NCBI GenBank assembly: GCA_020050795.1
Contig: JAGVKD010000004.1
Location: 384-64,383 of the forward strand
Direction of reading: 5' to 3'
Source: Candidatus Babeliales bacterium
GTDB taxonomy: Bacteria; Babelota; Babeliae; Babelales; Vermiphilaceae
DNA length: 64,000 nt
The translations under genes and the position numbers were made by a program. Below, in pieces: positions 697 through 53,608 of the stretch; the first letter of the stretch is position 1; each line of letters opens with the position of its first letter. The notes beneath the pieces are model-generated. The model was not told the DNA's origin. It did no database searches and saw only the letters and a program-made list of their open reading frames with translations.

Positions 697-741
697 TAAT
701 TATCCTGGTAGAGACTAATGGTTTTTCTTTACGTTACTTGG

Positions 742-2054: not shown

Positions 2055-2114
2055 AGGTACTTTTTACCTTACTGCATTTGGGAAAAACGTAAAGAAATTA
2101 TGTAGAAATAAGGG

Positions 2115-2387: not shown

Positions 2388-2469
2388 ATATTTTTCCTGA
2401 ATTAATTTTGAAAAAATGCAGCCATAAAAAATTAGGCTGCATTTTTAATCATGATATTGCCCAATGAGA

Positions 2470-2694: not shown

Positions 2695-2764
2695 AGTCAT
2701 TCCATTCTATCTGTTTTGTGAATTTAAAAATAACATAGGCCCTTGTGTGGGCGTATCGAGTTTT

Positions 2765-26240: not shown

Positions 26241-27719
26241 ATGAAAAAACTATTATTGAGTATGCTCGCGCTCGTTGGCATGCAAATTTATGCAGATGAG
26301 ATTACTGTTCACAATATGACGGGGAATCCGGTTAATATTGTAACCGCATGGTGGAATGCAAAAATTGGTGAACCTTCATTGACACTTAATGCAGACTCTT
26401 TACAAGCAGTAAGTACAGAAGAACCAGCTAAGTTCGAACGGCCCGCAGCTCAAGAAGAAAAGAAGGCCTGGTTACTTGCTGCGTATTCTGGTAAAGAGTT
26501 TGAAAAGTTGAGAGAAACATCCGAGACAAATCTCAAGTTATTTCCTGCATTACGTCCAGTCGCAAATATAAAATTAAAAAATAATGTGAAGAAAATAGGA
26601 ATAGAGATAGAATCTGGAAATGAATTTTACATTGTCCGAGATCCAGATAGTGAAGATTCTGTCCGCATTCAGAAGAAATCGCCAATAAAAGAAGCTCCAA
26701 GGGTTGAAGTTGTAGCAGCAGCTCCAGAAGTGCCAGTGATGCAAGAAGTTGCTGTAGTAAAGGAAGAGAAGAAAGAAGGGGTTGGTGAGATGTTTGCGCG
26801 CAAGGGCCGCGAGATAAAGGATGCGTGGGCGCGAGCTAAAGAGACGGTAGCTGAAGCAGTAACGACACGCATAGAAGAAACGAGAGGTTTTCAACCAGCA
26901 CAAGTTGAAAGCAAAGGCATTCAAAATCCAGTTTTAATTATCAATGGATTTGATAAACCTATTTATGTGCGTATGTATACTAAAAGCGATGTGGGATTAA
27001 TAGCAATTAACGATCAATCGCTTCCGGTAAAAATAGAAAAGGATAAATATTCATTTTTGCAGGGGCCAGAAAAAGGATCTTTTTTTAGAAGAAGTCCGCA
27101 AGCGACATTACTTGTTGCCCACGAACCGATAGATACGTTAAAGCGTTCAACAATAAGGGAGGCAACTCTTGAAGATATTACACCACATACGGTTTATCAT
27201 AACGAGATTTTAAATATTGCATCCTCTGGTGTTGAGCGATTTACTATGGGGAACGTTATTACAGTAAAAGTCTATGCATTAACTCGGCCAGACTATTTGC
27301 CCAATGCAGCAGTGTATGTAAAAGAAAAAAATACAGAAAATTATATTCAGGCAAGTCCTATCATCAAAACTAAGACACCGCAGGGCACAGCATTAGAAGC
27401 GGAAATTACGATTCTTGAGCCCAATGAAGAAGGATTTTTTGCCCGACTGGGTTTTGGACGAGAAAAATTTGTGGTCGGCATGGTTAATGAATCACAATTT
27501 AAAGCCCGTTTAAAAGAGCCGCTTCCCTTTACTCCTGAGACAAAGAGTTTGATTAACGGTACTTTGTTTAGCTATAGAAACTGTGTCACTTGGAAGCAAG
27601 ATGGAATCCTTTGGCTCAAGTCTCAGTCTTACTATGATGACAGAATACAAGAAGAAACATGGCTAACGCGATTTGCGGCAAGAGTTGCAAGAGTTTTAGT
27701 AAGAAGAGTGGCGAAATAA
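26241..27719 (+). CDS. secreted hypothetical protein sharing the N-terminal domain of the two phospholipases
   Basis: Leader MKKLLLSMLALVGMQIYA. ADEITVHNMTGNPVNIVTAWWNAK... aligns with ADLLTINNLTQTDVWVATYYNEG and CETEVLIENPTPRGLWGATYYTS. Confidence 0.6.
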   Translation: MKKLLLSMLALVGMQIYADEITVHNMTGNPVNIVTAWWNAKIGEPSLTLNADSLQAVSTEEPAKFERPAAQEEKKAWLLAAYSGKEFEKLRETSETNLKLFPALRPVANIKLKNNVKKIGIEIESGNEFYIVRDPDSEDSVRIQKKSPIKEAPRVEVVAAAPEVPVMQEVAVVKEEKKEGVGEMFARKGREIKDAWARAKETVAEAVTTRIEETRGFQPAQVESKGIQNPVLIINGFDKPIYVRMYTKSDVGLIAINDQSLPVKIEKDKYSFLQGPEKGSFFRRSPQATLLVAHEPIDTLKRSTIREATLEDITPHTVYHNEILNIASSGVERFTMGNVITVKVYALTRPDYLPNAAVYVKEKNTENYIQASPIIKTKTPQGTALEAEITILEPNEEGFFARLGFGREKFVVGMVNESQFKARLKEPLPFTPETKSLINGTLFSYRNCVTWKQDGILWLKSQSYYDDRIQEETWLTRFAARVARVLVRRVAK

Positions 27720-30252: not shown

Positions 30253-30660
30253 ATGAAACTACATGCATTATTATTGTGTCTTGCTTTGAGTGTGGTACCA
30301 CTCGCTGCGATGGGCAAAAAGAGGTTATCAGAAGGTTTTGTTGAGCGAGATGGGCAAGAACAAGAAGAGCCAGATCTATGGAAATTTTTTATTCCTGTTA
30401 GATCGCCTGGCCGTGGTGCGATCATAAATACACGTCGAGGAATTGGCCATTGGTTACTTGTTGCCCCTGAATTTAAAAATTTTTTTCACTATGCAAAGGT
30501 TGTTAAGGGTACTGCCTTCATTCAAAATGGTGCCATAAAGATCTTAGAAGTTGAAGGTATCAGGAGCATAGATGACTATTATAATGAGGGCATTTCCGTC
30601 GAGGAACGCCCAGAGAATGTGAGACTCAGGCTGGGTAGCAGGCTTGGTACTGTGCTATAA
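30253..30660 (+). CDS. small leader-bearing hypothetical protein
   Basis: MKLHALLLCLALSVVPLAA|MGKK. The track start at 30196 overlaps cmk and is unlikely. Confidence 0.5.
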   Translation: MKLHALLLCLALSVVPLAAMGKKRLSEGFVERDGQEQEEPDLWKFFIPVRSPGRGAIINTRRGIGHWLLVAPEFKNFFHYAKVVKGTAFIQNGAIKILEVEGIRSIDDYYNEGISVEERPENVRLRLGSRLGTVL

Positions 30661-30771: not shown

Positions 30772-31077
30772 TTAGATTTTTTCAGTAGTTTTTTTATAGC
30801 TGCTGGTAGTTGTTGTTTTTTCTTTTTTCATGCCTTTATCTTTTTTCATAGATTTTTCTTTAGCGGCTTTATCTTTCGCAGCTTTATCTTTTTTTGCTTG
30901 CTTTGCTTTGTCGCGTTCTGCGCGTTCAGCTTTGTCGTTTTTGCCGCCACGTTTTGAACGATCTTCACGTTCCTTTTTATCATACTTGCCTTTCAAGTCA
31001 CCATCTTTTTTACTGCAAGCTGGGAGTGAAAGCAGAGCGCCAGCAGCAAGTGCAAGGCTCAAGAATAACTTATTCAT
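30772..31077 (-). CDS. Lys-rich lipoprotein
   Basis: Lipobox MNKLFLSLALAAGALLSLPA|CSKK. The mature part is K/D/E/A low complexity. Confidence 0.6.
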   Translation of the reverse strand: MNKLFLSLALAAGALLSLPACSKKDGDLKGKYDKKEREDRSKRGGKNDKAERAERDKAKQAKKDKAAKDKAAKEKSMKKDKGMKKEKTTTTSSYKKTTEKI

Positions 31078-41710: not shown

Positions 41711-41766
41711 TTTCTCTATGCTAGACTCCGTTGATGAAAAAAGATGGTTGCAACAAGGAGATGTTG

Positions 41767-42117
41767 ATGAATAAGAGAATTGTGTTTCGCAACATGGCGC
41801 ATTCCGACCCGATGGAAGAATATGCAAATAAGCAGCTAGCAAAAATAGAAAAGTTTTTGACCAATGAACCTTCACCGGTCAATATTGAGCTTGTTTTGCA
41901 ACCTTCAAAAAATCATGAACATCATCATATTGAATTGCGCGTCAAATCAAAAAATTATGATTTGGTTTCTGACTATGAACATCAAGGTGATGATTTTTAT
42001 GACACACTGGATCGCGTGATTGATGTGATGTATCGCCGTTTGCTGCAAGAAAAAGAAAGACGCATTGATGAACGCAAATCGCGTGGTCGCCACGATGATT
42101 TTAAAAAAGAACGTTAA
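41767..42117 (+). CDS. hpf: ribosome hibernation promoting factor / RaiA family (short form)
   Basis: About 115 aa: ...IVFRNMAHSDPMEEYANKQLAKIEKF...HHIELRVKSKNYDLVSDYEHQGDDFYDTLDRVIDVMYRRL. AAGGAG upstream. Confidence 0.7.
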   Translation: MNKRIVFRNMAHSDPMEEYANKQLAKIEKFLTNEPSPVNIELVLQPSKNHEHHHIELRVKSKNYDLVSDYEHQGDDFYDTLDRVIDVMYRRLLQEKERRIDERKSRGRHDDFKKER

Positions 42118-42120
42118 ATA

Positions 42121-42152
42121 AAAAAGCCCCTCGCAATGAGGGGCTTTTCTTT
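42121..42152. terminator. bidirectional rho-independent terminator
   Basis: Stem gcccctc/gaggggc (42126-42132 / 42138-42144) with loop GCAAT, A-run and T-run flanks. Confidence 0.7.
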
Positions 42153-42164
42153 TGTTTGGCTGTT

Positions 42165-43004
42165 TTAGAACAAAGGATCGTGCTTATTAGAATCGCCATC
42201 AACTCCAAGTCCTTTGCGAAATTCTTCTGCCTCAATTTCGATCAGCTCTTTCGCGAGTACTTTCCTACGCTCTGCTAATTGTGCCTTTGATCTGAATGTT
42301 TCCTCTTTCTCAATTTCAGCATGGACAGACGTTTTGATTTCATTAATAACGGTCATCATAAAATGTTCTTTGGTTTCATCGCTGAGCAGAGTCTGCGCTT
42401 TTTGCCATCGCTCATCCGCTTCCATGGTGCCGCTCAAGCCACATTCATCATAGAGTTCTTTGAGTGCAAGAATTTTTGTGGTCACTTCGGCAAGCGGGGG
42501 TTGCTCACCAACTTGCTGCAAGTCACAAATTTCCTTCCCAAGCATGAGACCGAGCCTATACAAACTTCCCGGAGCGCATATTTTTCTAAGAACTGCTGTT
42601 CTGGGTGATAGCGGTGCCGATTGTGCAGCTGCTGCATCGATGGCGATATTTTTATTGCATTCTTCTATTGTGGTGGATGCGGCGGCCGCTTCTATAGAGC
42701 GTGGGATTTTCGCTGCGATGATATCAAAGAATGGCATCCTTGATTGGGGAGATGGTGTTCTATCCGTTGCTTGCATCCGGTTCAAAGTATCTTCCGTCTG
42801 CAACTTGGCATAAGCAGCGCGTGTGTCTGCAGAAAGATCACCGGCATGGGATTGGTGCAACTTGACCAATTCAGCAGCCTCAGCCATGCGTTTACTTGCA
42901 AAGTGTTCAGCTTCAGTCATAAACCCAGTCTCGTTATTACTATTCATTGCCTGTGCACAAAATGGAAATGCCAAAAGCAGCGTGAGCGATAGTATTTTTT
43001 TCAT
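42165..43004 (-). CDS. array A member 1, class I leader, SPRT motif
   Basis: MKKILSLTLLLAFPFCAQA|MNSNN; SAPLSPRTAVL; RWQKAQTLLSDETKEHFM. Confidence 0.65.
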   Translation of the reverse strand: MKKILSLTLLLAFPFCAQAMNSNNETGFMTEAEHFASKRMAEAAELVKLHQSHAGDLSADTRAAYAKLQTEDTLNRMQATDRTPSPQSRMPFFDIIAAKIPRSIEAAAASTTIEECNKNIAIDAAAAQSAPLSPRTAVLRKICAPGSLYRLGLMLGKEICDLQQVGEQPPLAEVTTKILALKELYDECGLSGTMEADERWQKAQTLLSDETKEHFMMTVINEIKTSVHAEIEKEETFRSKAQLAERRKVLAKELIEIEAEEFRKGLGVDGDSNKHDPLF

Positions 43005-43040
43005 GTGTGTCCTTGAAACAAAAGATGTTAAATTTTTGCT

Positions 43041-43523
43041 TTATAGTTCGCCGTTTATCTTTACCATTAGCGATCCCAATGCTTCATCAGTGAATCTTGG
43101 ATCAGGGGCGGCAGACGCTTTGACATCTAGAATAATTTGCTTCATAAAATGGTCTTTGGTTTTATTACTGAGAAGGTCTGAAATTGTTCGCCACGAATTC
43201 TGTCCAGATTCAGGGTCCTTCTTTAAGTCATCACGGATTTTTTTCAAGCTACAAGCTTTTTCTGCTTGCTTAAGAAGAAAATCATTTTGCAGAGATTCAT
43301 CCAGTTGACTAATTTCATAGGCGATTAACTCTTTAGGAGTATATTTCTCTTTAAGGAGCTTCGTGCGGGGGGACAATGGTACGCCTTCCGGCTTAAAGCG
43401 CCTTTCAGGTACCCAAGCTTGTACCGCTGCTTTCAATTCTTTCCCAGTCATAGGCTGTTCTTCCATAGCCTGTGCGCAGAATGGAACGGTCAAAAGTAAT
43501 GTGAGTGAAAGTAATTTTTTCAT
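43041..43523 (-). CDS. array A member 2, class I leader, SPRT motif
   Basis: MKKLLSLTLLLTVPFCAQA|MEEQP; VPLSPRTKLL; SWRTISDLLSNKTKDHFM; ends INGEL. Confidence 0.65.
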   Translation of the reverse strand: MKKLLSLTLLLTVPFCAQAMEEQPMTGKELKAAVQAWVPERRFKPEGVPLSPRTKLLKEKYTPKELIAYEISQLDESLQNDFLLKQAEKACSLKKIRDDLKKDPESGQNSWRTISDLLSNKTKDHFMKQIILDVKASAAPDPRFTDEALGSLMVKINGEL

Positions 43524-43568
43524 GTGGGTCCTTGAAACAAAAGATGTTTAATTTTTTTTGCTCGTATA

Positions 43569-43597
43569 AGTATAAGTAAAAGAGTATTCGAGCACAA
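43569..43597 (-). promoter_or_regulatory. sigma70-like promoter of array member 2
   Basis: Minus strand TTGTGC-N17-TATACT, with the -10 element 46 nt upstream of the ATG. It lies just downstream of the terminator at 43624-43657. Confidence 0.45.
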
Positions 43598-43623
43598 ATT
43601 GCGGGATATAAAATTTTCTCAAT

Positions 43624-43657
43624 AAAAAAAGGCTCCTCGCAATGAGGAGCCTTTTTA
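43624..43657 (-). terminator. rho-independent terminator after array member 3
   Basis: Stem ggctcctc/gaggagcc (43631-43638 / 43644-43651) with loop GCAAT, and a T-run on the minus strand. Confidence 0.7.
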
Positions 43658-43670
43658 ATTTTTTGCTTTA

Positions 43671-44408
43671 TTATAGTTCGTCGTTAATCATTGCCATTAC
43701 CAATGATTCATCAGTTGCTCTCGCATCATTAGGGTTGGTAGATTTAGAGGCGACAGACGCTTTGATTTTTTTAACAGCTTTCAGCATAAAATGAACTTTG
43801 GTTTCATCGCTGAGCAGTGTTTGAGCTTTGTTCCATCTTAGATCAATCACACCACCCATTTTATTGCTGTCATCAAAAAACTTTTTCAAGACAAGTGCTT
43901 TCATCGTTATGTCGGCAGGTGCGGCATCGGCAATTTCCATCTTGCTAATTTCTTCCGCGATCATTTCAGCAAGCGTATAGTCAAGCACTAGCGTCATTTC
44001 TTTGAGGCACGATGTTCGGGGTGACAATGGATTTTTTACAGCACCCTGAACCTTCAAGGCCTCAGTTAATTTTCTGGCTTCCTTAGCTTGCGCGGCCAAT
44101 GTATCCGAGTCGCCGTCAAAATATTCTTCTTTTTCCTGTTCCTGGAATTCTGGTAGCTTTATTGCCCTAGCAACACGTCGTTTCTGTGCACGCAATTCTT
44201 GTAGCTGAGCTACTGAAGCAGCTGCTTCATCCTTGGGTAACCACTGTACAAATTTATCATCGGGATGATGTATGCCCACTGTGTGACTAGCAGGCTGAGC
44301 AGCTGCCATGCAAGCGAGTGCTTCAGCCTCGTTATTATTATTATGATTCATTGCTTGTGCACAAAATGGAGCAGTCACAAGCAGCGTGAGTGATAATAAT
44401 TTTTTCAT
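43671..44408 (-). CDS. array A member 3, class I leader, SPRT motif
   Basis: MKKLLSLTLLVTAPFCAQA|MNHNN; NPLSPRTSCL; RWNKAQTLLSDETKVHFM; ends INDEL. Confidence 0.65.
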   Translation of the reverse strand: MKKLLSLTLLVTAPFCAQAMNHNNNNEAEALACMAAAQPASHTVGIHHPDDKFVQWLPKDEAAASVAQLQELRAQKRRVARAIKLPEFQEQEKEEYFDGDSDTLAAQAKEARKLTEALKVQGAVKNPLSPRTSCLKEMTLVLDYTLAEMIAEEISKMEIADAAPADITMKALVLKKFFDDSNKMGGVIDLRWNKAQTLLSDETKVHFMLKAVKKIKASVASKSTNPNDARATDESLVMAMINDEL

Positions 44409-44455
44409 GTGTGTCCTTGAAACAAAAGATGTTTAATTTTTTTCGACCAGATACA

Positions 44456-44484
44456 AGTATAGGCAAAAGTGTATTCAAGTTCAA
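44456..44484 (-). promoter_or_regulatory. sigma70-like promoter of array member 3
   Basis: Minus strand TTGAAC-N17-TATACT, with the -10 element 48 nt upstream of the ATG. The 5' region is homologous to that of member 2. Confidence 0.45.
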
Positions 44485-44524
44485 ATCACAGCGTGTAAAA
44501 AAAGCCTAATAAAAAGGGCTTACT

Positions 44525-44971
44525 TCATTTTCTGATTTGTCTCAATCCCTTCTTTTCCCATATCTTCTTTCCAAGAGCTTCTCTGCTTTTGGTGAATGCT
44601 TTATAATCGCGCCATTTTTGCCCATCGGGATCTTCTTGTTGCAGAGCATTGTGAGCATAGAGTGAGTCATATTTAATACACAATTGTTCAAAACGTTGCA
44701 TAGAGTCCATGAACATTTCGCACGCTATTGTATAATCAGTCTTAAGATTTTGATGTTCTTCTTGGTCTTGCGAGCCAGGCAAATTCTTTTCTAAAGCCAG
44801 GCTGCTTGTAAGGGCATGAAAAGCGTGCGCGAGATCAGCAAGCTCACTTGTATTCATCGCTTTCCAAGTTTGGACGTAACCAATTACTCGTGATTTCTCT
44901 TTAGCCTCGCCATCCATGCACAGAGCTGATGCAGTTGCGCAGAGCAGTAAGATGCTTAATTTAAATTTCAT
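44525..44971 (-). CDS. array A member 4, class II leader
   Basis: MKFKLSILLLCATASALC|MDGEAK. The track start at 45001 runs into a terminator stem. Confidence 0.6.
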   Translation of the reverse strand: MKFKLSILLLCATASALCMDGEAKEKSRVIGYVQTWKAMNTSELADLAHAFHALTSSLALEKNLPGSQDQEEHQNLKTDYTIACEMFMDSMQRFEQLCIKYDSLYAHNALQQEDPDGQKWRDYKAFTKSREALGKKIWEKKGLRQIRK

Positions 44972-44989
44972 TTCCAAAAACCTCATGAT

Positions 44990-45023
44990 ATTAAAAAACA
45001 CCCTCTTGCTAGAAAAGAGGGCG
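44990..45023 (-). terminator. rho-independent terminator after array member 5
   Basis: Stem ccctctt/aagaggg (45001-45007 / 45015-45021), with a T-run on the minus strand. Confidence 0.55.
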
Positions 45024-45049
45024 TTTAGTTTGTCTACCTGACTAATTTT

Positions 45050-45580
45050 TTATTCTTGATTATCGGAATGATTATTCATGATGTCTTCTAATCTTTTCCT
45101 AAGTATTTGTTTATTTTTATGAAGACTTGCCAGGACGCTTGGTATCGTTGCATCTTTGCCGCCTTTGCTTGCTATCGCGGTTATTATTTTTCCATCAAAC
45201 TGCGTGTGAAACTCTGTATCGAATTGCAAGAGGGCCCATGCAGAATTAATCAACCCCGTAGTGAGTTTTTCATATTCGACTTCCAATGGACCGGGCTCTA
45301 ATGCGCACTGTGATCCGTCAGATGTGATACTATTTGCTAGATGAGTAAGTGACTCATAATGCTCAGTGCAGGATTCTGCAAGTTTTTTAAGCTGGTAAAG
45401 GTTGGGGCGTGCTGGAGCTTTGACAGGCTCAGGATCGGTGGTTGGTTCATTTGGATCCACAAGAGCTGCGAGACCTCGAATATCTTGAATCGGTTGAGCC
45501 GCAGGTGCCGCATTATTATCATTCATGCATACGGCTGATCCGGTTGCGCAGAGTAGCAAAATGCTGAGTTTATAGTTCAT
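45050..45580 (-). CDS. array A member 5, class II leader
   Basis: MNYKLSILLLCATGSAVC|MNDNN. Confidence 0.6.
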   Translation of the reverse strand: MNYKLSILLLCATGSAVCMNDNNAAPAAQPIQDIRGLAALVDPNEPTTDPEPVKAPARPNLYQLKKLAESCTEHYESLTHLANSITSDGSQCALEPGPLEVEYEKLTTGLINSAWALLQFDTEFHTQFDGKIITAIASKGGKDATIPSVLASLHKNKQILRKRLEDIMNNHSDNQE

Positions 45581-45625
45581 CTTCGAAATCCTTCTGTGTT
45601 GTTGTAGTAATAAAGAGAGGATATT

Positions 45626-46255
45626 TTATTTTTTAGCTTTTAATGTATCGAGTGTTGTCTTGATACTTTTTTTACTGCTACCAATCTCTTTCAGAGCTTG
45701 AGGTATCTTGCTCTTTTCTTTTTCATTGTGTTCTAGTGCATCCACAATGTCAGGATTGAATTGTGCACGATAGCTTCTTTCATATGCCGCAAGAGCTGGT
45801 TCAAGTGCCACTACCTGATTGTGGAGCTGTGCATAATGAGCAGCGAGAGTTCCTTCTCTATGGTTTTTTCCATAGTCCTTATCTTTTCTTGCGCGAATAT
45901 CCGCTTTAACTTTTGCTTTTTCGCTACTAGAGAGATAGCCATGCACCACCGTTGGTGTGTCACTGCTTCTCATTTTTTCTTCTATCCGTTGTGATTCTAT
46001 TGTCTTGAGAGCATGCAAAACTTTTCCATATTGTTCCACAAGACCGGTAAGTTCACGAATGGACAATGTTCTCGCGGCAGGACCAGGCATGGTCCTCGGT
46101 AGAAATGCTTCTCTGTCTAATGCGTCGGATAAGGCTTTGGATGCCCCGGCAAAATCAGGTTGAGCAGCAGGTGCGGGTACAGGTGCATTATTATCATTCA
46201 TGCATATAGCTGATCCTGTTGCGCAGAGCAGCAAAATGCTTAGTTTATATTTCAT
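45626..46255 (-). CDS. array A member 6, class II leader
   Basis: MKYKLSILLLCATGSAIC|MNDNN; weak FLPRT motif. Confidence 0.6.
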   Translation of the reverse strand: MKYKLSILLLCATGSAICMNDNNAPVPAPAAQPDFAGASKALSDALDREAFLPRTMPGPAARTLSIRELTGLVEQYGKVLHALKTIESQRIEEKMRSSDTPTVVHGYLSSSEKAKVKADIRARKDKDYGKNHREGTLAAHYAQLHNQVVALEPALAAYERSYRAQFNPDIVDALEHNEKEKSKIPQALKEIGSSKKSIKTTLDTLKAKK

Positions 46256-46295
46256 AGAAGAACCCTTTTTGATGTTAAAAATAATAATGATTTCA

Positions 46296-46907
46296 CTATT
46301 CTTTGATGCCAAAAACAGTTTGTGCTTCGGGCAGTAATTGTTTCATAGTTTCTATTTTTCTTGATTCTAAAAACATCTGTGAATATGCAGCTTTTTCATC
46401 TGAATCGCCATGCTGCCATATCTTTTGCTCGCTCTCACGAAGGCAGGCTTTCAAATGGCGAACAATTATACTGCCGGCATATTTTTTGCATTCTTCGTTT
46501 AAGGATTTGAATTCTTCGAGGGTTGCATCTTTACCTTGCGCGAGGAAATTAAAATAATTTTCAACTTCAGATGCCACGAGCAAGCTATTGGATCCGCCCA
46601 ATACGGCCACGATATCTTTTGCAGCGCCATTTGAACGCAACACATTCATGGTTGATTTGCGTTGTGAGACAATCGCTTCTTGGCATGTTGTGCGCTTGAA
46701 AACAGTCTGATGTAGTTTTATAACGAATGATGTGCGGGGAGATAATGGCGCTTCCGCTGGTGGTTGTTCTGCATCGCCAGAATCATCTTGTGGTCTATTG
46801 AGGAGTGCAAGCAATGCTGCACGCGGTTGTCGTGCTACGACAAGTTCCATTGCTTGTGCGCAGAGTGTGGATGCCAAAAAGAATGTGAGCGATAGTATCT
46901 TTTTCAT
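46296..46907 (-). CDS. array A member 7, class I leader, SPRT motif
   Basis: MKKILSLTFFLASTLCAQA|MELV; APLSPRTSFV; ENYF...IIVRHL shared with member 10. Confidence 0.6.
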   Translation of the reverse strand: MKKILSLTFFLASTLCAQAMELVVARQPRAALLALLNRPQDDSGDAEQPPAEAPLSPRTSFVIKLHQTVFKRTTCQEAIVSQRKSTMNVLRSNGAAKDIVAVLGGSNSLLVASEVENYFNFLAQGKDATLEEFKSLNEECKKYAGSIIVRHLKACLRESEQKIWQHGDSDEKAAYSQMFLESRKIETMKQLLPEAQTVFGIKE

Positions 46908-46938
46908 GAAAGTCTTCATTTTAAAAAGTGTGTAATTT

Positions 46939-47175
46939 TTATTTCTTACTAGCATCACTCTTTGGAACTTTTTTCTCTGGCGATGATGGTGCAGGCTGAG
47001 GCTTTTGAGCCTTGTGCTGTTCATGCAAGATTGCGAGCTTCTCCAACCGTTCTGAGCGACTAAGCTTCATCAGTTCGTTCACCTGCTCGTTGGTAAAACG
47101 AGGAAATCCATCATCATCCATGCACAGAGCCGATCCGGTTGCGCAGAGTAGCAAAATACTGAGTTTATAACTCAT
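46939..47175 (-). CDS. array A member 8, class II leader (78 aa)
   Basis: MSYKLSILLLCATGSALC|MDDDG. The start overlaps the stop of member 9 by 11 nt (ATGAGTTATAA). Confidence 0.5.
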   Translation of the reverse strand: MSYKLSILLLCATGSALCMDDDGFPRFTNEQVNELMKLSRSERLEKLAILHEQHKAQKPQPAPSSPEKKVPKSDASKK

Positions 47176-47638
47176 TTTCAAATCCATGTTGGTTTGTTTG
47201 GTTGTTGCTAATTTCTTGGAGTTTTCTTTCAATAGATTGTCTGCATTTTTCTCGCTCTCTAAAAACAGAAAAATCTTGGTGATTTCCGCCGCCATGCCCA
47301 TCGATTATATGTTGGCTCAATTGATCTTGATGCAGTCTATCCAACTCCATAAGATCGGTTAAGGCTTGTCTTATCGAATCACTTGCTCGTTGATGTGCGC
47401 CGGCAATGCGCCGTGGGTTTTCACACATCTTCCGCTCTTCTTCGGTTATATAGTTATCCCGTTCAGCAAGATTACTTATGAGATTATGCGCGAGCTCCGC
47501 GAGGACATTCATATCTGACAGACTTAATTTTCCTATCGAATTTTGTGTAGCAGGGGTGAGCTGTGGGTCATTGTTATCATTCATGCATATGGCAGATCCA
47601 GTTGCGCAGAGTAGCAAAATAGTGAGTGCGTATTTCAT
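47165..47638 (-). CDS. array A member 9, class II leader
   Basis: MKYALTILLLCATGSAIC|MNDNN. AGGAG lies 7 nt upstream of ATG 47636-47638. Ends FENEL. Confidence 0.6.
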   Translation of the reverse strand: MKYALTILLLCATGSAICMNDNNDPQLTPATQNSIGKLSLSDMNVLAELAHNLISNLAERDNYITEEERKMCENPRRIAGAHQRASDSIRQALTDLMELDRLHQDQLSQHIIDGHGGGNHQDFSVFREREKCRQSIERKLQEISNNQTNQHGFENEL

Positions 47639-47676
47639 CTTCAAACTCCTGAGTGAGAATTATTAATGGTAACGGG

Positions 47677-48234
47677 TCAATTATAATCAGTTACGTTAAA
47701 AACCTTGCGTGTTTTCGTGAGCAATTTTTGGTACATATTTCTTTGTTGTACGGCAGCGAATACTTTCTTGGAAGCATCTTGCTCATCACTGAGCCCGAGT
47801 TGAATGATTGTCTTCTTATAATTCTCAAGGGAGTCCACTAAATGTCTCACTATAAATTCTCCTTCTCGCTGTTTGGCCTCGGAGGCTAATCCTTTAAAAT
47901 CTTCCACAGAAGCAGTGTGCCATGCGAGTCGCTGCAGATAATCTTCAAGTACGGCCATTGAGGCGAAATAATTCTCACCAAGCTCATCTAAAAAGTTGGG
48001 ACGCCCCGCCTCGAACTGCATTTTTAAACGACGTCGTTCTCTAAATATTGTAAGACAGGAAGTCTTATTGAAAATATCAAGGTTATGAGCCTCTATAAAT
48101 AATGATGTGCGTGGAGAGAATGGAGTTCTTTCCGCTGCAGGGTGTTCAGTGGTGTCAGAATCAGAATTGGCATCTTCCATAGCCTGTGCGCAGAATGTGG
48201 CACAAAGCAATATGAAGAAAATTTTTGTTTTCAT
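47677..48234 (-). CDS. array A member 10, degenerate class I leader, SPRT motif
   Basis: MKTKIFFILLCATFCAQA|MEDAN; TPFSPRTSLF; ENYF...FIVRHL. Confidence 0.6.
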   Translation of the reverse strand: MKTKIFFILLCATFCAQAMEDANSDSDTTEHPAAERTPFSPRTSLFIEAHNLDIFNKTSCLTIFRERRRLKMQFEAGRPNFLDELGENYFASMAVLEDYLQRLAWHTASVEDFKGLASEAKQREGEFIVRHLVDSLENYKKTIIQLGLSDEQDASKKVFAAVQQRNMYQKLLTKTRKVFNVTDYN

Positions 48235-48330
48235 ATGAGTCCTGTGTAAACAAAGATGTGAGTCTATTTCAGCGGTGATAGTATAGGCCAAAGCATGGCA
48301 AGATGCAAAAATGAGAGTGTGTGCGAAAAC

Positions 48331-48364
48331 AAAAAAAGCCCCCGTCATGAACGAGGGCTTTTGA
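48331..48364 (-). terminator. rho-independent terminator after array member 11
   Basis: Stem gcccccgt/acgagggc (one mismatch), with a T-run on the minus strand. Confidence 0.55.
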
Positions 48365-48376
48365 AATTTAAATCAA

Positions 48377-49054
48377 CTATTTAATATTCTGTTGCTCTTC
48401 GAAATCTTTTAATTTCGTGAGATCAAATTGTGCGGCTTCGAGCTTTGCAACCTCTTCAACAATGGTTGTGGCACGCGCATAGTAGTTTGTCCAGACTCTA
48501 TCGATTGCCTTTGAGTCGAGATTTCTGCGGCTAACTGTCGCATCCGCTTCTAATTTTAGTTGCGCCTTCGTCGCTTCGGCATGCGCATCCTTCAAATTCC
48601 CATGAGTTGCTTCAATTGCTTTTTTGAGTTCAGCTATCCTCGTTGTGAGAACCGCTTTTTTGGCATTGATAGCCTGCGAAAGAAGGACGCCCTTGTGATC
48701 AGCATGTGCTGCTAGATGTTGAAGAAGGCGTTCTCTGTCACTGGGAGCCTTGATACCATTTTTTGCTCTATTTGCTGCATTGAGGAATACCTTCCCATCA
48801 CTCTTGCCAGATAATAAGTCCTGGAGAGCATCATCGAGGTGCTTAGCAATGAGTTTTTCTGTTGATTCTGGTGCGGGAAGCAATCCTTTAATCTCTGCAT
48901 TTCCCTTCTCAAGTTCTTCAAGAAGGAATGAAGTGCGGGGCGTTTGTGGAGTTGATTGAGCTGCAGGTGGAACTGTATTCGGCTGCCCAGATTCCATGCA
49001 GGATGTGGTGCCAGCGGCTAAGAGCGTTAACGAAAGAATTGATAGTTTTTTCAT
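48377..49054 (-). CDS. array A member 11, class III-like leader, TPRT motif
   Basis: MKKLSILSLTLLAAGTTSC|MESGQ; TPQTPRTSFLLEELEKGN. Confidence 0.6.
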   Translation of the reverse strand: MKKLSILSLTLLAAGTTSCMESGQPNTVPPAAQSTPQTPRTSFLLEELEKGNAEIKGLLPAPESTEKLIAKHLDDALQDLLSGKSDGKVFLNAANRAKNGIKAPSDRERLLQHLAAHADHKGVLLSQAINAKKAVLTTRIAELKKAIEATHGNLKDAHAEATKAQLKLEADATVSRRNLDSKAIDRVWTNYYARATTIVEEVAKLEAAQFDLTKLKDFEEQQNIK

Positions 49055-49096
49055 GGAAGTGTCTTTCCTTTAAAAATGAGAACAATACAATGTTAT

Positions 49097-49744
49097 TTAT
49101 TTACCAGCGGCTTGGATTGCATAAAGACAGGCCGTAATTTTTGTTAGACATTTTCGGTAGGGCTTCCAAACTTCATCAACAGCGGCTCCTTCAAGTTGTT
49201 TTCCCGTTGCATTGCATTGCGCAAGTTTTGCGTGTGCGATTCGGTTTTCTCGTTTCAACTTTGGAAAGAGTGTGAGTGCAAGCTGTTGTGTGGCGGCTTT
49301 GCATTCTGGTCTGGAGATATGGGCTAGTATAACTGTGTCATCAGAGAGAAGATTCTGCTTCTCTTTAGTTGCAGCGTTCATTATGTAAGTCTTATTTTCT
49401 TCAGAACCATTTACCAATTCAAGAAGCTGCTCTTCCTGAAGCTGAAATTCCGCCTCAGTTGGAACCGGAAATCCAGCCAGATGGGCATTGCACCACGCAG
49501 CCACAGATTTTTGAGTTGTTACATATACCTGTTCCTTCAAAGAGCGCTCTGCACTTTCTTCAATCACGTGGCTGAACAATTCTTGTTTTGGAAGTCTTTG
49601 CATAATGCCCGCATTTCCAAGGCGAAGTTCTTCAAGAAGGAATTTGGTACGTGGACTTTGTGGAACTAATCCAACTGCAGATTCCATAGCGGATAGAGTG
49701 CCAGCAAAGAAAACTGTTATGGAGAGAAGCGACAGTTTATTCAT
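49097..49744 (-). CDS. array A member 12, class III leader, SPRT motif
   Basis: MNKLSLLSITVFFAGTLSA|MESAV; VPQSPRTKFLLEELRLGN. Confidence 0.65.
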   Translation of the reverse strand: MNKLSLLSITVFFAGTLSAMESAVGLVPQSPRTKFLLEELRLGNAGIMQRLPKQELFSHVIEESAERSLKEQVYVTTQKSVAAWCNAHLAGFPVPTEAEFQLQEEQLLELVNGSEENKTYIMNAATKEKQNLLSDDTVILAHISRPECKAATQQLALTLFPKLKRENRIAHAKLAQCNATGKQLEGAAVDEVWKPYRKCLTKITACLYAIQAAGK

Positions 49745-49751
49745 AGGTGTA
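49684..49751 (-). repeat. class III leader cassette copy (68 nt), paired with 50404..50471
   Basis: 67/68 nt identical to 50404..50471. Covers 7 nt of 5' UTR, the whole leader and the Met-Glu after it. Confidence 0.85.
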
Positions 49752-49765
49752 TCTTTCATATAAAA

Positions 49766-50464
49766 TTAAAGTCCAATTTCGAAGTTTCGAATTGCGTGAA
49801 GACAGAGCTCAATCCTGTTTAGACATGCTTGGTAGGGTCTCCAGATTTCTTCTTTCACTCTTATTCTTTCATCAATTGTTGTTTCAGGTTTGATAGTTGC
49901 TTCGTACTGAGCAAGTTTTGCTTTTGCGATGAGGCTTTCCCGTTTCAATCTTGGATAATAGATTGCTTTTACGCGGAGTTGTAAAGCGCCAACGGAGGTA
50001 TTTCGTGCAAGTGGCGAGGGTTCAGATAGAATAACACGCCTATGATCAGTTGCAGATCGTACCATGAGATCTTTGTTTTCTTCAGAATGGTTTATAAATT
50101 CAAGAAGATCTTTTTCTTGAAGCAGAAATTCTCCCTCAGTAGGAATCGGAAATCCTTGATCCAGATGATTGACCCAAGCGCACACATGTTGGGTAACGCG
50201 AGCTTTTTCACTCCAATTTAGATGGTATTCTAAGCTGCGATCAGTTGTCTCTTCAGCATGGCTAGAGGACTTTCGCTCTGGCAGGAGCTGTTTAATGGCT
50301 TCATTGCCAAGACGAAGTTCTTCAAGAAGGAATTTGGTGCGCGGACTTGCGGGAGCTACAGCATCGATTTCTTCTGATCTGAGTCGTTTTGCGTGATCAG
50401 GCTCCATAGCGGATAGCGTGCCAGCAAAGAAAACTGTTATGGAGAGAAGCGACAGTTTATTCAT
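49766..50464 (-). CDS. array A member 13, class III leader, SPRT motif
   Basis: MNKLSLLSITVFFAGTLSA|MEPDH; APASPRTKFLLEELRLGN. Confidence 0.65.
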   Translation of the reverse strand: MNKLSLLSITVFFAGTLSAMEPDHAKRLRSEEIDAVAPASPRTKFLLEELRLGNEAIKQLLPERKSSSHAEETTDRSLEYHLNWSEKARVTQHVCAWVNHLDQGFPIPTEGEFLLQEKDLLEFINHSEENKDLMVRSATDHRRVILSEPSPLARNTSVGALQLRVKAIYYPRLKRESLIAKAKLAQYEATIKPETTIDERIRVKEEIWRPYQACLNRIELCLHAIRNFEIGL

Positions 50465-50499: not shown

Positions 50500-52221
50500 T
50501 TATCGAGTTAACTGTGCAATAAATTCCGTCGGTTCAATATCATACAGCTCTGCGCCCCAACGTGCAATTTCTTTTTCGTGATGTGGATCAATAACGATGA
50601 AGGTTGGCACGCCCACTACATGGAATTTTTCTGCAACTGATTGATCGATATCTTCCAACTTGACGGTAACATAATCATTTAATTTTTTTTGCACATCAAC
50701 GCAGCAAAAGAGCGTGCGATCGATTGCTTTGCAGATTGAACAGTAGGGCGCGCTCACATCGAGAAACAGTAATTTGTTTTCCCGTTTTGCGTGCTCAATT
50801 CCCTCTTCATATGAATGAATCCAAGCGCTTGTTGGTGATGTTTCGCACTGACATTGATGCATTGCTTGATAGGATTTTGCCGCCATAACCACAAATGCGG
50901 CCGTCAGGATCATGCCGATAACATTGTGTATTTTTTTCCATACGCCAACACTTTTTGTTGCTTCATGCAAATAGAATAACCCAGCGCCGAGAGTCAAAAA
51001 TGAGGCGATCCACATAATGGCAGTCCATGGCAAAATATTGCTCAAAAAATGAAGACTCGTTGCCAAAATAATAAATCCAAATGCTTTTTTAATTTCCACC
51101 ATCCACATGCCCGCGCGTGGCAGAGCGTTCATTGATGAAGAAAATGTGCCGATGATCAGCAATGGAATACCCAGTCCTATCCCAAAGAAAAAGAGCAGCA
51201 AGAAGCCAAGCAGCGTGCTGCCTAGCGTGGTGACAAGCGTGAGCAGTAGCAGCAAGCCAGGAGATAAGCAGGGTGATGCAATCGACCCACTCACGGCACC
51301 AAGCATGAAAATAGAAATGATTGAACCGTTGTGATTGCTCGATTTGCTACTTTGCAAAAAGCGCGGGATATACATGTCATAAAAACCAATCATTGAGCCG
51401 GCCATGTAGACCAGCAATGCCACAATGGCAATAATAAACCAAGGTCTGGCAAGTAGATTTCCACAGAGTTTTCCCGTGCACGAAGCGAGCAAACCAAGCA
51501 GCGCAAAGGTGGTGGCAATGCCAATCACATAACAGAGTGCCAACAGAAAATTACGTCCCACCGATTTGGTGCTGTGTGATTGCAACACACCCACGGTGAT
51601 CGGAATCATCGGATAGATGCACGGTGTGAGGCTCAAAATAAGACCAAGCAAAAGTGCAAGAATCAGGCGCAAAGCCATCGATTCGGTATTTTGCAGCGTG
51701 TCGGAAAAATAGGAGGACCAGGAAGAAGGTTTTTTTGGTTCTGCTTCTTGCGGTGGCGTAGTTGTTTTGTGAGAATGCATCGTAGATTCTTCAGCTGCTA
51801 GTTGTTCAACAATTGATGCTGGCGGATTATTCATCACAATCGGGAATGAGGCATGCTCAATTTTGTGCGTATTTTTCTGATAATAGCTCACATGCAAATG
51901 TGCGTCAGGAGTTTGTGCATTTTCAGTTTCTGCGCGAAATGAAAAGGTGACTGGTTCATAATAGGCGAGTTTCGTATTATTAAATCCCGTATCATATTGT
52001 TCGCGCGGCGTGCTCGATGCACGGGCTGGCGACAGGGTGATGGCTGGATGGTCAGTGGAAAAAGAAAGATAATCATGGTACAAACAATCACCCGCATCAA
52101 CATTAAAATTGACTTGCACATCACTTGAGTGTTCGTCTATTGGTGTTATAGTACAGGTTGGCGCTGCACTCAGGATGGTGGTGCAGAGTGTCAGAAATAA
52201 TGGTACGAATTTTTTTAGCAT
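50500..52221 (-). CDS. dsbD: thiol:disulfide interchange protein DsbD (N-domain + CcdA-like membrane core + thioredoxin domain)
   Basis: Leader MLKKFVPLFLTLCTTILSA. Membrane core LTPCIYPMIPITVG and SPCLSPGLLL. C-terminal thioredoxin fold with APYCSICK. Confidence 0.85.
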   Translation of the reverse strand: MLKKFVPLFLTLCTTILSAAPTCTITPIDEHSSDVQVNFNVDAGDCLYHDYLSFSTDHPAITLSPARASSTPREQYDTGFNNTKLAYYEPVTFSFRAETENAQTPDAHLHVSYYQKNTHKIEHASFPIVMNNPPASIVEQLAAEESTMHSHKTTTPPQEAEPKKPSSWSSYFSDTLQNTESMALRLILALLLGLILSLTPCIYPMIPITVGVLQSHSTKSVGRNFLLALCYVIGIATTFALLGLLASCTGKLCGNLLARPWFIIAIVALLVYMAGSMIGFYDMYIPRFLQSSKSSNHNGSIISIFMLGAVSGSIASPCLSPGLLLLLTLVTTLGSTLLGFLLLFFFGIGLGIPLLIIGTFSSSMNALPRAGMWMVEIKKAFGFIILATSLHFLSNILPWTAIMWIASFLTLGAGLFYLHEATKSVGVWKKIHNVIGMILTAAFVVMAAKSYQAMHQCQCETSPTSAWIHSYEEGIEHAKRENKLLFLDVSAPYCSICKAIDRTLFCCVDVQKKLNDYVTVKLEDIDQSVAEKFHVVGVPTFIVIDPHHEKEIARWGAELYDIEPTEFIAQLTR

Positions 52222-52264
52222 AATGAATGTCCTTTTATAGCTCACGTTGAAAAAGGTGAATGTC

Positions 52265-53608
52265 ATGAAGAATAACACATATTTATTATTGTTGATCTCC
52301 GCAGTGTTATACGCACTGCCCTTTCTTTTTATACACCAACTTTGGTGGCTCGTCTTTCTCTATCCTATACCACTTTTGTATGCAGCACTATACAACCGAT
52401 TAACCTTTTTACACGGTGTTTTTTGGGGTGCGATCTCGTGGGGATTGCATCTGAGCGGTGTTTTGTATGCCATCATTAGTATGGCGCAAGGCAGCTGGGG
52501 CTATGCATTAATTCCCGCGGTGGGCATTGTGCTCTATCAAGCATTTTTTGTGGGAATCATTTTCTGGCTCACGCAATCATTAATCGAATATAGTCGTTCG
52601 CTCAAAATCGAGCGTGAATTGGGAATTTGGACCGTTGCTCTTTTTGTATACACCTACTGGGTGGATCGTTGGTGCTTGTTTGTGTTTGGTCGTGTGGAAG
52701 GATATCAATTGATGCATCCGCTCATGCCACTTGCAAAACATCCGGCATTGTTGGCCCTCTTGCCAATCCTGGGCAAGGTGGGACTCACCGCATTATTCTT
52801 TGTGGTTGCAGCAACGGCAACTTATGCACTTGTGCGCAGAACATTGTTCTCAGTGGGATTGTGTGCGCTTAGTTTGCTGCCCTGGTTGGCGAGTGCCTTG
52901 CTTGCACAACCGCATCAACCAGAACCAGAATGGGTTTCAAAAATTGTGACGATGCCAACTATTTTCCCGGCAGCGAATAATAAAGTGGCGATGGTGCGCG
53001 CAGCGGGCGATGAGTTTGCCTACATTGTGCGACAAGAACCGAATGCGCAACTGATTGTGATGCCGGAATCTTCCTATTATGACGATCGTCTTGCAGAACG
53101 AAATGAAACTCAACAATTTTGGGCAGATAATCACGTCGGCAAAAATATTAATTTGTTGGTGGGTGCCTTTCGCCGTGATGATGGCATCTTCTACAATTCG
53201 GTCTATTGGTATAAAAATGGGCAACTACAATCCTATTTTGATAAACGACACACGATGGTGTTGACCGAGCATATTCCTTCTTTTCTTAATTTTGGGCAGA
53301 TCAATGACATGTATTTCCGTGCCTATCCGCAGCGCTGCATTGGCTGCAATGAGCGGACACCATTCGCACTGTTGGATGAGCAATCATTTGTGCCCTATGT
53401 CTGTTCGGAGCTTTTTTTCAATGAGCGTCCTGATGATAACTATCAGAATATGCCTATTATTTTTGTTTCGAATGATATGTGGTTCGATCTGCCCGGTTCG
53501 CGCTATGTGCAGGATCTGATGGAAGTGGGTGCGCAATTCAAAGCGATTCAATGGCAGCGAGATATTGTCTACACCTCTGTTTCGCGCATGAATTTTATTG
53601 GCAAATGA
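52265..53608 (+). CDS. lnt: apolipoprotein N-acyltransferase
   Basis: Multi-TM N-terminus plus a CN-hydrolase domain with the E/K/C triad contexts LIVMPESSYY, YFDKRH, VCSELFF. Confidence 0.8.
   Translation: MKNNTYLLLLISAVLYALPFLFIHQLWWLVFLYPIPLLYAALYNRLTFLHGVFWGAISWGLHLSGVLYAIISMAQGSWGYALIPAVGIVLYQAFFVGIIFWLTQSLIEYSRSLKIERELGIWTVALFVYTYWVDRWCLFVFGRVEGYQLMHPLMPLAKHPALLALLPILGKVGLTALFFVVAATATYALVRRTLFSVGLCALSLLPWLASALLAQPHQPEPEWVSKIVTMPTIFPAANNKVAMVRAAGDEFAYIVRQEPNAQLIVMPESSYYDDRLAERNETQQFWADNHVGKNINLLVGAFRRDDGIFYNSVYWYKNGQLQSYFDKRHTMVLTEHIPSFLNFGQINDMYFRAYPQRCIGCNERTPFALLDEQSFVPYVCSELFFNERPDDNYQNMPIIFVSNDMWFDLPGSRYVQDLMEVGAQFKAIQWQRDIVYTSVSRMNFIGK

Follow-up and report, generated by a model that had tools for sequence, protein, structure and literature searches.

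The interval between dsbD and hpf in the 64,000-nucleotide stretch of DNA that we analysed (the window) is filled by 13 tandem minus-strand ORFs (Table 1). With ORF starts shifted to the leader Met, these code for 78-279 aa; they are separated by gaps of 21-147 nt, and genes 5 and 6 form the only overlapping pair (11 nt), all as described in the initial annotation. Gene 6 is possibly a truncated copy. In 200 shuffles, same-strand ORFs reached a mean coverage of 2.4% and a maximum of 13%; their actual coverage of the interval is 93%. For every one of the 13 genes the annotated frame had the top codon-usage score among six frames, and most starts have a Shine-Dalgarno-like AAGGA/AGGAG sequence ahead of them; judged by these coding signals the 13 ORFs are real genes. 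The GC content of the array is like that of the remainder of the window. Internal terminators and TTGnnn-N17-TATACT promoters had also been claimed, and were found as terminator-like hairpins and promoter-like sites. The DsbD relatives obtained by protein sequence search were all from Dependentiae/TM6/Babeliales, which places the source organism in the Dependentiae (TM6), a phylum with an intracellular lifestyle, parasitic on protists (PMC4776705, PMC6561590). The obligate intracellular lifestyle proposed earlier from two ATP/ADP translocases (both TLC family by domain search) fits this placement. A Lnt-like gene, with a weak Pfam match, lies near the array (52247-53608).

Table 1. Features of the dsbD-hpf interval and its flanks (window positions; a slash marks the predicted leader cut; motif positions are coding positions).
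Feature	Coordinates	Strand	Size (aa)	Leader class	Sub-family	Motif	Remarks
dsbD	50500-52221	-					conserved upstream flank; 85% aa identity to relative
gene 1	49766-50464	-	232	III (MNKLSLLSITVFFAGTLSA/ME)	D	APASPRT, 50336-50353	
gene 2	49097-49744	-	215	III	D	49646-49663	size counted from leader Met; AlphaFold2 model
gene 3	48377-49054	-	225	III, degenerate	D	PQTPRT, 48932-48949	
hairpin + T-run	48334-48362	-					terminator-like, after gene 3
TTTGCA-N18-TATACT	48280-48309	-					promoter-like, upstream of gene 4
gene 4	47677-48234	-	185	I, degenerate	C	PFSPRT, 48106-48123	
gene 5	47165-47638	-	157	II (MKYALTILLLCATGSAIC/MND)	B	none	
gene 6	46939-47175	-	78	II			short mature part
gene 7	46296-46907	-	203	I	C	PLSPRT, 46731-46748	
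gene 8	45626-46255	-	209	II	B	degenerate FLPRT	
gene 9	45050-45580	-	176	II	B		
hairpin + T-run	44996-45026	-					terminator-like, after gene 9
gene 10	44525-44971	-	148	II	B		
TTGAAC-N17-TATACT	44456-44484	-					promoter-like, upstream of gene 11
gene 11	43671-44408	-	245	I (MKKLLSLTLLVTAPFCAQA/MN)	A	PLSPRT, 44013-44030	W.KAQTLLSDETK.HFM box at C-terminal end
palindromic hairpin	43626-43656	.					terminator-like, after gene 11; A and T runs flank both sides
TTGTGC-N17-TATACT	43569-43597	-					promoter-like, upstream of gene 12; read from sequence
gene 12	43041-43523	-	160	I	A	PLSPRT, 43362-43379	minimal member of sub-family; AlphaFold2 model
gene 13	42165-43004	-	279	I	A	PLSPRT, 42597-42614	
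hairpin	42122-42148	.					between convergent hpf and gene 13; common to both
hpf	41731-42117	+					ribosome hibernation factor (Ribosomal_S30AE); conserved downstream flank; 94% aa identity to relative

The three interleaved leader classes were recovered with the membership first assigned to them. In a rule-based call the leaders have the features of Sec signal peptides: a basic n-region, an h-region of 9-12 residues, and small or aliphatic residues at -3/-1 (A/A, A/C, L/A or T/C). The mature N-terminus is Met-Asp, Met-Glu or Met-Asn in all 21 proteins of the window and its relative (see below). Leader DNA of genes 1 and 2 is identical at 56 of 57 nt; leader amino acids are kept despite 3-8 synonymous codon differences per pair, so selection acts on the peptide. 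The mature parts have no further hydrophobic segment (mean hydropathy ≤1.16 for every 19-residue stretch), and 23-37% of their residues are charged. By these sequence rules the array proteins bear the marks of Sec export and signal peptidase I cleavage, and the prediction that they are exported is well supported. Cleavage by signal peptidase II at a Cys near the leader end, which would make the array a variable surface lipoprotein family of the kind known from Borrelia or Mycoplasma, is very improbable. Class II leaders do end in GSA[VIL]C/M and gene 3 in TTSC/M, the Lnt-like gene is close by, and Foldseek gave a weak, non-significant match (E=5) to Borrelia PFam12 BBK01; however, gene 3 is the only one of the 21 proteins with a PROSITE-type lipobox (A, G or S before Cys), the sole Cys of class I leaders falls four residues ahead of the predicted cut, two of the three class III leaders in the window contain no Cys, and a true lipoprotein in the window (30772-31077) has a canonical LPAC/S box.

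The mature parts fall into four sub-families (A-D). The groupings proposed earlier stood up in blastp, but the sub-families are not all independent, because A, C and D have an [ST]PRT motif in common. This motif, P-x-[S/T]-P-R-T in full, was absent from the initial annotation. Its [ST]PRT core is invariant in 15 of the 21 proteins, with P at -2 in 14 of these, and lies 6-36 residues past the cleavage site in 13 of the 15. Profile-profile comparison aligned sub-families A, C and D with one another only across a 14-20 residue stretch containing it. Sub-family B of the window is without the motif; in the relative, one protein with a class II leader has the same core. The pattern P.[ST]PR[TS] occurs eight times in the six frames of the window, each time within the array, and is absent from the 701 ORFs with leaders in 1.57 Mb of sequence from other Dependentiae loci. 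AlphaFold2 models of genes 2 and 12 were of moderate confidence (mean pLDDT 60 and 64); in both, the first helix with pLDDT above 70 starts at the motif, which in the models is an N-terminal helix cap. Foldseek matched neither model to a solved structure and, given also their moderate confidence, the models therefore offer no clue to function.

As had been claimed, no array protein carries a named domain: none matched Pfam or NCBIfam, and profile searches linked none to a known housekeeping family of the periplasm. A PDB sequence search returned nothing. Among 5.8 billion proteins, gene 1 matched nothing but itself and its paralog. HMMER, run exhaustively over 1.84 billion representative proteins, returned 11 members of the array, a single protein from the relative and no others, and profiles built from both genomes had no match among the 9,704 ORFs taken from other Dependentiae loci. 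The array is thus lineage-specific in all searches run, its homologs being confined to the window organism and its relative.

Public data hold one close relative, which has the same dsbD-to-hpf interval on a contig (L081/L104) collinear with the window. Copy number is variable, as anticipated, with 13 genes in the window and 8 in the relative. Flanking DNA is 83-90% identical; the similarity passes through dsbD, ends 25 nt inside gene 1, and resumes at the hairpin beside hpf, so that the variable island ends there on its 3' side. Inside the interval, the only DNA matches are some leader segments of 68-105 nt. Protein identity is 85-94% for the flanks and 24-47% for the best array pairs; dN is 0.03-0.09 in the flanks (dS 0.48-0.74) and 0.57-1.1 in the array mature parts, for which dS in this two-genome comparison is saturated or unreliable. 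Nonsynonymous divergence of the array proteins is about 10-fold above that of their neighbours. In the relative, the dsbD 3' end, spacer and leader recur ahead of the second gene, in sequence terms the footprint of a duplication. From these comparisons the dsbD-hpf interval is a hypervariable gene island, and fast turnover of the array is well supported. The divergence may reflect positive selection, or relaxed constraint together with differential loss of old paralogs, as seen between two genomes.

Neutral drift of decaying, non-functional duplicates is a reading we hardly credit. It would account for mature-part dN near or above flank dS, for the member cut down to 78 aa, and for the lack of homologs in the HMMER search beyond the array and the one protein of the relative. 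However, frames of 150-280 codons would not survive a neutral divergence of some 0.6 per site, yet every one of the 13 window frames and of the 8 frames of the relative is intact; ribosome-binding sites stand at most starts, in-frame codon usage is correct, and there is little or no variation in the leaders, the +1 Met or the motif. We give equally little weight to the idea that the genes encode orphan immunity proteins, protecting against competitors' toxins that act in the periplasm, as in acquired interbacterial defence islands. Tandem, small, leader-bearing, fast-evolving paralogs without an enzymatic domain would suit such a role, but the flanks are dsbD and hpf, with no toxin, Rhs, CDI or type VI secretion gene; families of that kind are usually spread widely by horizontal transfer, whereas the array was found in two related genomes only and has native GC content and codon usage; and an obligate intracellular parasite would meet little interbacterial warfare.

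The proteins might also be exported but retained, as helical proteins that are soluble in the periplasm or associated with the envelope (chaperone-like, structural, or peripheral at the surface) and whose fast change would come from weak constraint or from contact with host defences. We regard this as rather unlikely, though a Sec leader assures delivery to the periplasm only, the array adjoins the periplasmic redox gene dsbD, the distant Dependentiae loci L089 and L090 also have arrays of small leader-bearing ORFs beside dsbD, domain searches detected no eukaryote-like domain in the array proteins, and Foldseek was empty of significant matches. Housekeeping periplasmic proteins are normally conserved, whereas the array diverges at the elevated rate given above and differs in copy number inside one genus; it matches no known periplasmic family, there is no membrane anchor, and just one of the 21 proteins has a lipobox. 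Cysteine content is erratic (0-5 per protein), hence the proteins are not obviously clients of the DsbD pathway. Envelope-resident or surface-exposed proteins are likewise typically fast-evolving, which counts against an effector reading.

The explanation that we favour, with modest confidence, is a birth-and-death family restricted to this lineage, whose soluble helical products are exported through Sec and probably released as effectors directed at the host. Support for the host role is indirect. The window also encodes two leader-bearing eukaryote-type PLA2_B lipases and a leader-bearing ankyrin+RING protein (16096-16758), which can act only in a eukaryotic cell. In Chromulinavorax, 44% of coding sequences have signal peptides and ORFans are enriched among these (PMC6561590); most ankyrin proteins of Babela have signal peptides (PMC4378268). 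The sole secretion system detected in Dependentiae is type II, and Sec-leader proteins are taken as effectors (PMC4378268, PMC6561590); TM6 core genes include type II components (PMC4776705). No type II secretion genes lie within the window, and passage of the array proteins across the outer membrane is what we infer. No linear signal is known for type II substrates.

The array has likenesses to several known systems. ORFan and ankyrin effector candidates of Chromulinavorax destructans and Babela massiliensis come from the same phylum and lifestyle, have Sec leaders on proteins without annotated function, and presumably leave by Sec and then type II secretion or vesicles (PMC6561590, PMC4378268, PMC4776705); tandem duplications are common in Babela. 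No protein of either genome is related in sequence to the array, and no description of three leader classes, an invariant +1 Met and P-x-[ST]-P-R-T, or of a sharply bounded variable island between conserved genes, was found in PMC6561590, PMC4378268 or PMC4776705. Phytoplasma SVM-signal effectors (PF12113; SAP11, SAP54), Sec-secreted by an obligate intracellular bacterium, also combine a conserved signal-peptide module with highly variable small mature proteins (PMC8026896). PF12113, however, had no match in the array at E≤1, and the array occupies a fixed chromosomal slot rather than mobile units; phytoplasmas have no outer membrane, so Sec export alone frees the protein, whereas array proteins need a second step. 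Oomycete RxLR effectors and Plasmodium PEXEL proteins have a signal peptide, a short motif within a few tens of residues and a fast-evolving body, and their genes are clustered and variable in copy number. Layout and clustering are like those of the array, but these are eukaryotic pathogens with unrelated motif sequences, and the array motif, a helix cap in the models, carries no evidence of a processing or translocation role. Small type II substrates of the amoeba parasite Legionella pneumophila (NttA group) have Sec leaders, no known domains and a genus-restricted distribution (PMC7325957); they have no homology to the array, and their genes are single and scattered, where the array is a hypervariable tandem cluster with common leader classes.

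Under the birth-and-death explanation, each protein would consist of a Sec-type signal peptide of 18-19 residues from one of the three conserved classes, the Met-Asp, Met-Glu or Met-Asn mature N-terminus, a short linker (often Pro/Ala/acidic-rich) at the end of which, in most members, the motif opens the first helix, and a soluble, charged, all-helical body without detectable relative. The array would expand and contract through tandem duplication and loss; the helical bodies would diverge at a roughly neutral rate or faster, and the leader, +1 Met and motif would be held constant by selection with some gene conversion. The conserved N-proximal module may serve export, sorting or a common host contact, and the variable body may supply shifting specificity in a host-parasite arms race. 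Near-neutral change outside the leader and motif is the pattern expected of secreted host-manipulation proteins, a role that the array proteins may have.

The array of 13 tandem minus-strand ORFs between dsbD and hpf (genes are named here by their lower coordinates) described in the initial annotation was borne out by our ORF listing, as were the intergenic gaps of 21–147 nt, the 11-nt overlap of genes 47165 and 46939, the three leader classes (I, II and III), the interleaving of these classes and the motifs of the sub-families. The 5' extensions of 6/13 ORFs were spurious; once each ORF is restarted from the first Met of its hydrophobic leader, the products are 78–279 aa. These ORFs are real genes: same-strand ORFs covered 93% of the interval compared with a mean of 2.4% in shuffles, the annotated frame was the best-scoring one for each of the 13 under a codon model trained on the conserved genes of the window, and AAGGA or AGGAG preceded most of them. 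The GC content of the array is that of the remaining window, and a foreign origin was ruled out by the native GC content and codon usage. Terminator-like hairpins lie 3' of genes 48377, 45050 and 43671, as previously claimed, and also 3' of 42165; promoter-like sites (TTGnnn-N17/18-TATACT) lie upstream of 43671 and 43041, also claimed previously, and of 47677. Because of these hairpins and TATACT sites, transcription of the array probably proceeds in about four units. Rfam and tRNA scans of the array returned no match.

Coordinates of the array, its sub-families and other features of the window and of the sister locus (L081/L104, the locus of the only close relative in public data); positions are those of the window unless a locus is named
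Feature	Position	Strand	Remarks
Array	42165–50464	-	13 genes
Sub-family A	42165, 43041, 43671	-	grouped by blastp
Sub-family B	44525, 45050, 45626, 46939, 47165	-	grouped by blastp
Sub-family C	46296, 47677	-	grouped by blastp
Sub-family D	48377, 49097, 49766	-	grouped by blastp
dsbD	50500–52221		upstream flank of array
Membrane protein	52247–53608	+	453 aa; divergent from dsbD; 89% identical in sister
Ankyrin + RING protein	16096–16758	-	220 aa; Sec-type leader; C3HC4 RING finger
PLA2_B paralogs	19350–21299, 24273–26222	+	649 aa each; leader-like N-terminus
Large leader-bearing ORFs	26241–27719, 8032–9813, 9826–11859		
Second tandem array	56632–59742	-	five leader-bearing paralogs, 152–241 aa, without Pfam domain
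Sister counterpart of second array	L104 4268–6129		three genes
Loss of DNA similarity at second array	L104 4337–6127; window 59673–56609		flanks 83% identical
Small leader-bearing ORFans	289–3064	-	76–135 aa; Met after predicted cleavage
Small leader-bearing ORFan	14511–14867	-	as above
Small leader-bearing ORFan	30253–30660	+	as above
Duplication footprint in sister	L081 7328–7436 (= L104 12346–12449)		diverged copy of dsbD 3' end, spacer and leader start

The leaders (18–19 residues) begin with basic residues, continue as a hydrophobic core free of charges and end in A-x-A, A-x-C or L-x-A at the cut. A rule-based test for Sec export and signal peptidase I cleavage (basic n-region; uncharged h-region of about 8–12 residues; small or aliphatic uncharged residues at -3 and -1) was passed by 13/13 window proteins and by the 8/8 proteins of the sister array, the -3/-1 pairs among these 21 being A/A, A/C, L/A, T/C, T/A and V/C. 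No second hydrophobic segment was found in any mature part (19-residue mean hydropathy ≤1.16), as is characteristic of soluble exported proteins, which lack a further membrane-spanning segment; the mature parts contain 23–37% charged residues and have a pI of 5–9.4. Judged from sequence, the array proteins thus display the features of Sec export and of a soluble, predicted helical product. That they are instead lipoproteins is less likely, since a PROSITE-type lipobox ([LVI..][ASTVI..][AGS]-C at the cleavage site) fits only 1/21 proteins, the product of gene 48377.

Two features absent from the initial annotation join these proteins beyond their leaders. In 13/13 window proteins the first mature residue after predicted cleavage is Met (Met+1), followed by D, E or N, and sub-families A, C and D have in common the motif P-x-[S/T]-P-R-T, a pattern with eight occurrences among the six translated frames of the window, every one inside the array. 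In profile-profile comparison A, C and D aligned mutually over the motif stretch only (14–20 residues), and sub-family B gave no meaningful alignment to the others. Across both genomes the core [ST]PRT is invariant in 15/21 proteins; within these 15, P-x-[ST]-P is present in 14 and [ST]-P-R in all, and in 13 the motif lies 6–36 residues past the cleavage site. AlphaFold2 models of one D and one A member, built from three-sequence alignments, were all-helical and of moderate confidence (pLDDT 60 and 64), and in both the first well-predicted helix begins at the motif, behind a low-confidence linker.

We examined public data for relatives of the array. A word-indexed search of gene 49766 against 5.8 billion proteins returned only itself and its neighbour, and a HMMER profile made from the mature parts of 11/13 members (all four sub-families, concatenated as three rows) and run over 1.84 billion representative proteins returned 11 array members and one other protein, P0022. 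P0022 is encoded in the sister, on a metagenome contig of 88,946 bp that shares the gene order of the window (lnt-like, dsbD, small genes, hpf, der, dnaX, rpsB, TLC, TLC, lon); a metagenome scan added only the one sister contig, and the six contigs with the sister DsbD are 99.99–100% identical. The metagenomes in which the sister contig occurs come from soil and rhizosphere (JGI 3300005843, 3300014968, 3300028381; ENA ERZ27252108). Around the more distant DsbD relatives no array homolog was detected by phmmer or by two-genome profiles, the latter covering 9,704 ORFs of about 94 other Dependentiae dsbD loci, and the motif was found in 0/701 leader-bearing ORFs of those loci. This agrees with the earlier proposal of a lineage-specific family, which as far as public data show is confined to one genus-level lineage. 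An immunity-gene array is a less likely explanation of the locus, both because its flanks are dsbD and hpf/der, with no toxin or delivery gene, and because its homologs occur in one sister genome only, unlike the spread across unrelated taxa of such genes. The earlier statement that no member has a named domain also held: matches to Pfam for the 13 proteins (best E=0.03) were below cut-offs, those to NCBIfam for 10/13 (without 46939, 49097 and 49766; best E=0.008) were far below them, PDB sequence profiles gave no match, and Foldseek comparison of the AlphaFold2 models with the PDB gave best E values of 1.7–2.4, with none <1.

Comparison with the sister locus showed a sharply bounded interval of replacement. 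DNA of the two genomes is 83–90% identical until 25 nt into the first array gene, and similarity resumes at the hpf terminator; inside the interval, DNA alignment is limited to leader segments of 68–105 nt. Copy number is variable, as had been anticipated, with 13 genes in 8.3 kb in the window and 8 genes in 4.6 kb in the sister. Flanking proteins are 85–94% identical (dN 0.03–0.09, dS 0.48–0.74), whereas the best pairs of array proteins are 24–47% identical and their mature parts have a dN of 0.57–1.1, with dS saturated or unreliable. All three leader classes recur in the sister array, with Met-Asp at +1 in 8/8 proteins and [ST]PRT in 7/8, its single class II member among them.

Ahead of the second array gene of the sister lies a further copy of the 3' end of dsbD, of the spacer and of the leader, so this gene was made by tandem duplication. 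Leader pairs show 3–8 synonymous differences over 11–17 identical-residue codons; genes 49097 and 49766 have 56/57 leader nucleotides in common and a mature-part dS of about 1, and in most pairs mature dS exceeds leader dS. Leader conservation accordingly reflects purifying selection in part and concerted evolution in part. Long DNA repeats were rejected as a mechanism, the only repeats being the coding segments for leader, motif and W.KAQTLLSDETK themselves, and a 5' untranslated segment of about 35 nt in sub-family A was rejected as a family regulatory element, as it is not kept in the sister. Array dN is at or above the level of neutral divergence between the two genomes; from these two genomes, the rate fits either diversifying selection or weak constraint together with differential loss among the older paralogs. 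Decay of the genes is unlikely, since all 21 frames have stayed open, a ribosome-binding site precedes most of them and the N-terminal module (leader, Met+1 and motif) is kept; the open frames and the module likewise make it less likely that the ORFs are junk. The evolutionary pattern of the array is typical of effector or antigen families.

Downstream of the array, on the opposite strand, lie hpf and der, which are followed by dnaX, rpsB and a pair of TLC nucleotide translocases. The relatives of DsbD, searched among 185,579 species genomes, are all from Dependentiae/TM6/Babeliales at ≤48% identity. Members of this phylum live as obligate intracellular parasites in protists (PMC4776705, PMC6561590, PMC4378268), which fits the obligate intracellular lifestyle proposed earlier from the two translocases. 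Elsewhere in the window, the ankyrin + RING protein (Pfam E=3.6e-10 for the ankyrin repeats and 8.5e-6 for the RING finger) may be a secreted E3 ubiquitin ligase of eukaryote-like type, and both 649-aa paralogs have a PLA2_B domain (the catalytic domain of eukaryote-type lysophospholipase/cPLA2; E about 1e-28). In this organism, then, a Sec leader is found on proteins that make sense only in a eukaryotic cell. A Pfam scan of the three large leader-bearing ORFs gave no match. The membrane protein beside dsbD has only a very weak Pfam match (E=0.2) to the N-terminal domain of apolipoprotein N-acyltransferase, and may be a divergent Lnt.

Other leader-bearing families of the window share the Met junction. 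All five paralogs of the second tandem array have ...A↓M or ...P↓M at the predicted cut (↓), and among the small ORFans, genes 289 and 2470 have leaders 72% identical and unrelated bodies. Within the window Met+1 marks small ORFan families, not conserved exported proteins. The pattern [ASGC]M[DENQ] at residues 15–30 was present in 19/52 leader-like window ORFs, 9/18 in L104 and 66/701 in other Dependentiae loci, where some dsbD-adjacent arrays also have an ...A↓MD junction (loci considered: L089, L090 and L052).

From the vesicles observed in Chromulinavorax and the enrichment of ORFans among its signal-peptide proteins (PMC6561590), from the eukaryote-type leader-bearing proteins of the window and from the evolutionary pattern of the array, we infer that the array proteins pass out of the periplasm and act on the host. 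Type II secretion substrates have a Sec or Tat leader, and the array proteins have a Sec-type one; no gsp genes lie within the 64-kb window, and type II secretion components are reported as core genes of TM6 (PMC4776705, PMC4378268). The main alternative to host action is that the proteins, exported by Sec, remain in the periplasm or on the envelope.

Known effector groups offer a likeness of design. The phytoplasma SVM effectors (PMC8026896) likewise have a conserved leader ahead of a variable body, but their family profile, PF12113, was unmatched by any of the 13 array proteins at E≤1. RxLR/PEXEL effectors resemble the array in layout only (signal peptide, near motif, variable body); the motif here is P-x-[ST]-P-R-T, not RxLR or RxLxE/Q/D. 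Judged on defining sequence features, the array belongs to neither group. Proline-directed kinases recognize P-x-[ST]-P (MAPK) and [ST]-P-[KR] (CDK), and the array motif, which follows a low-confidence linker in both models, fits the MAPK and the short CDK consensus, as a pattern match only. There is a slim chance that the N-terminal module is an address label, for delivery or for a host kinase, on a fast-diversifying effector repertoire. Such a label would combine three elements: the class-specific Sec leader, the Met-[D/E/N] N-terminus and the motif with which helix 1 begins. The motif would either direct sorting or processing for passage out of the periplasm or be recognized by host proline-directed kinases, and the Met-acidic N-terminus would mimic the native end of a eukaryotic cytosolic protein. 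If this were true, the array would be a bacterial counterpart of the RxLR/PEXEL design, and the Met+1 trait might extend across Dependentiae.

We found no published account of the family or its leader classes, nor of the Met+1 rule, the motif or the bounded hypervariable slot, in keeping with the initial view of an undescribed family; that Dependentiae have many leader-bearing ORFans and tandem duplications is already published. The array does not overturn current views, and its function is something we infer. Very few members of the Dependentiae, which are widespread protist parasites, have been cultured; signal peptides occur on nearly half of the proteins of these bacteria, and the majority of those are uncharacterised. 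For such organisms the locus is a clean, bounded example of repertoire evolution, a fixed slot between conserved flanks in which gene number and sequence have been almost wholly replaced, and leader, Met+1 and a six-residue motif alone have been kept. These three invariants are handles on host delivery by a bacterium whose secretion routes are limited to Sec and type II, and the variable bodies are candidate determinants of host range.
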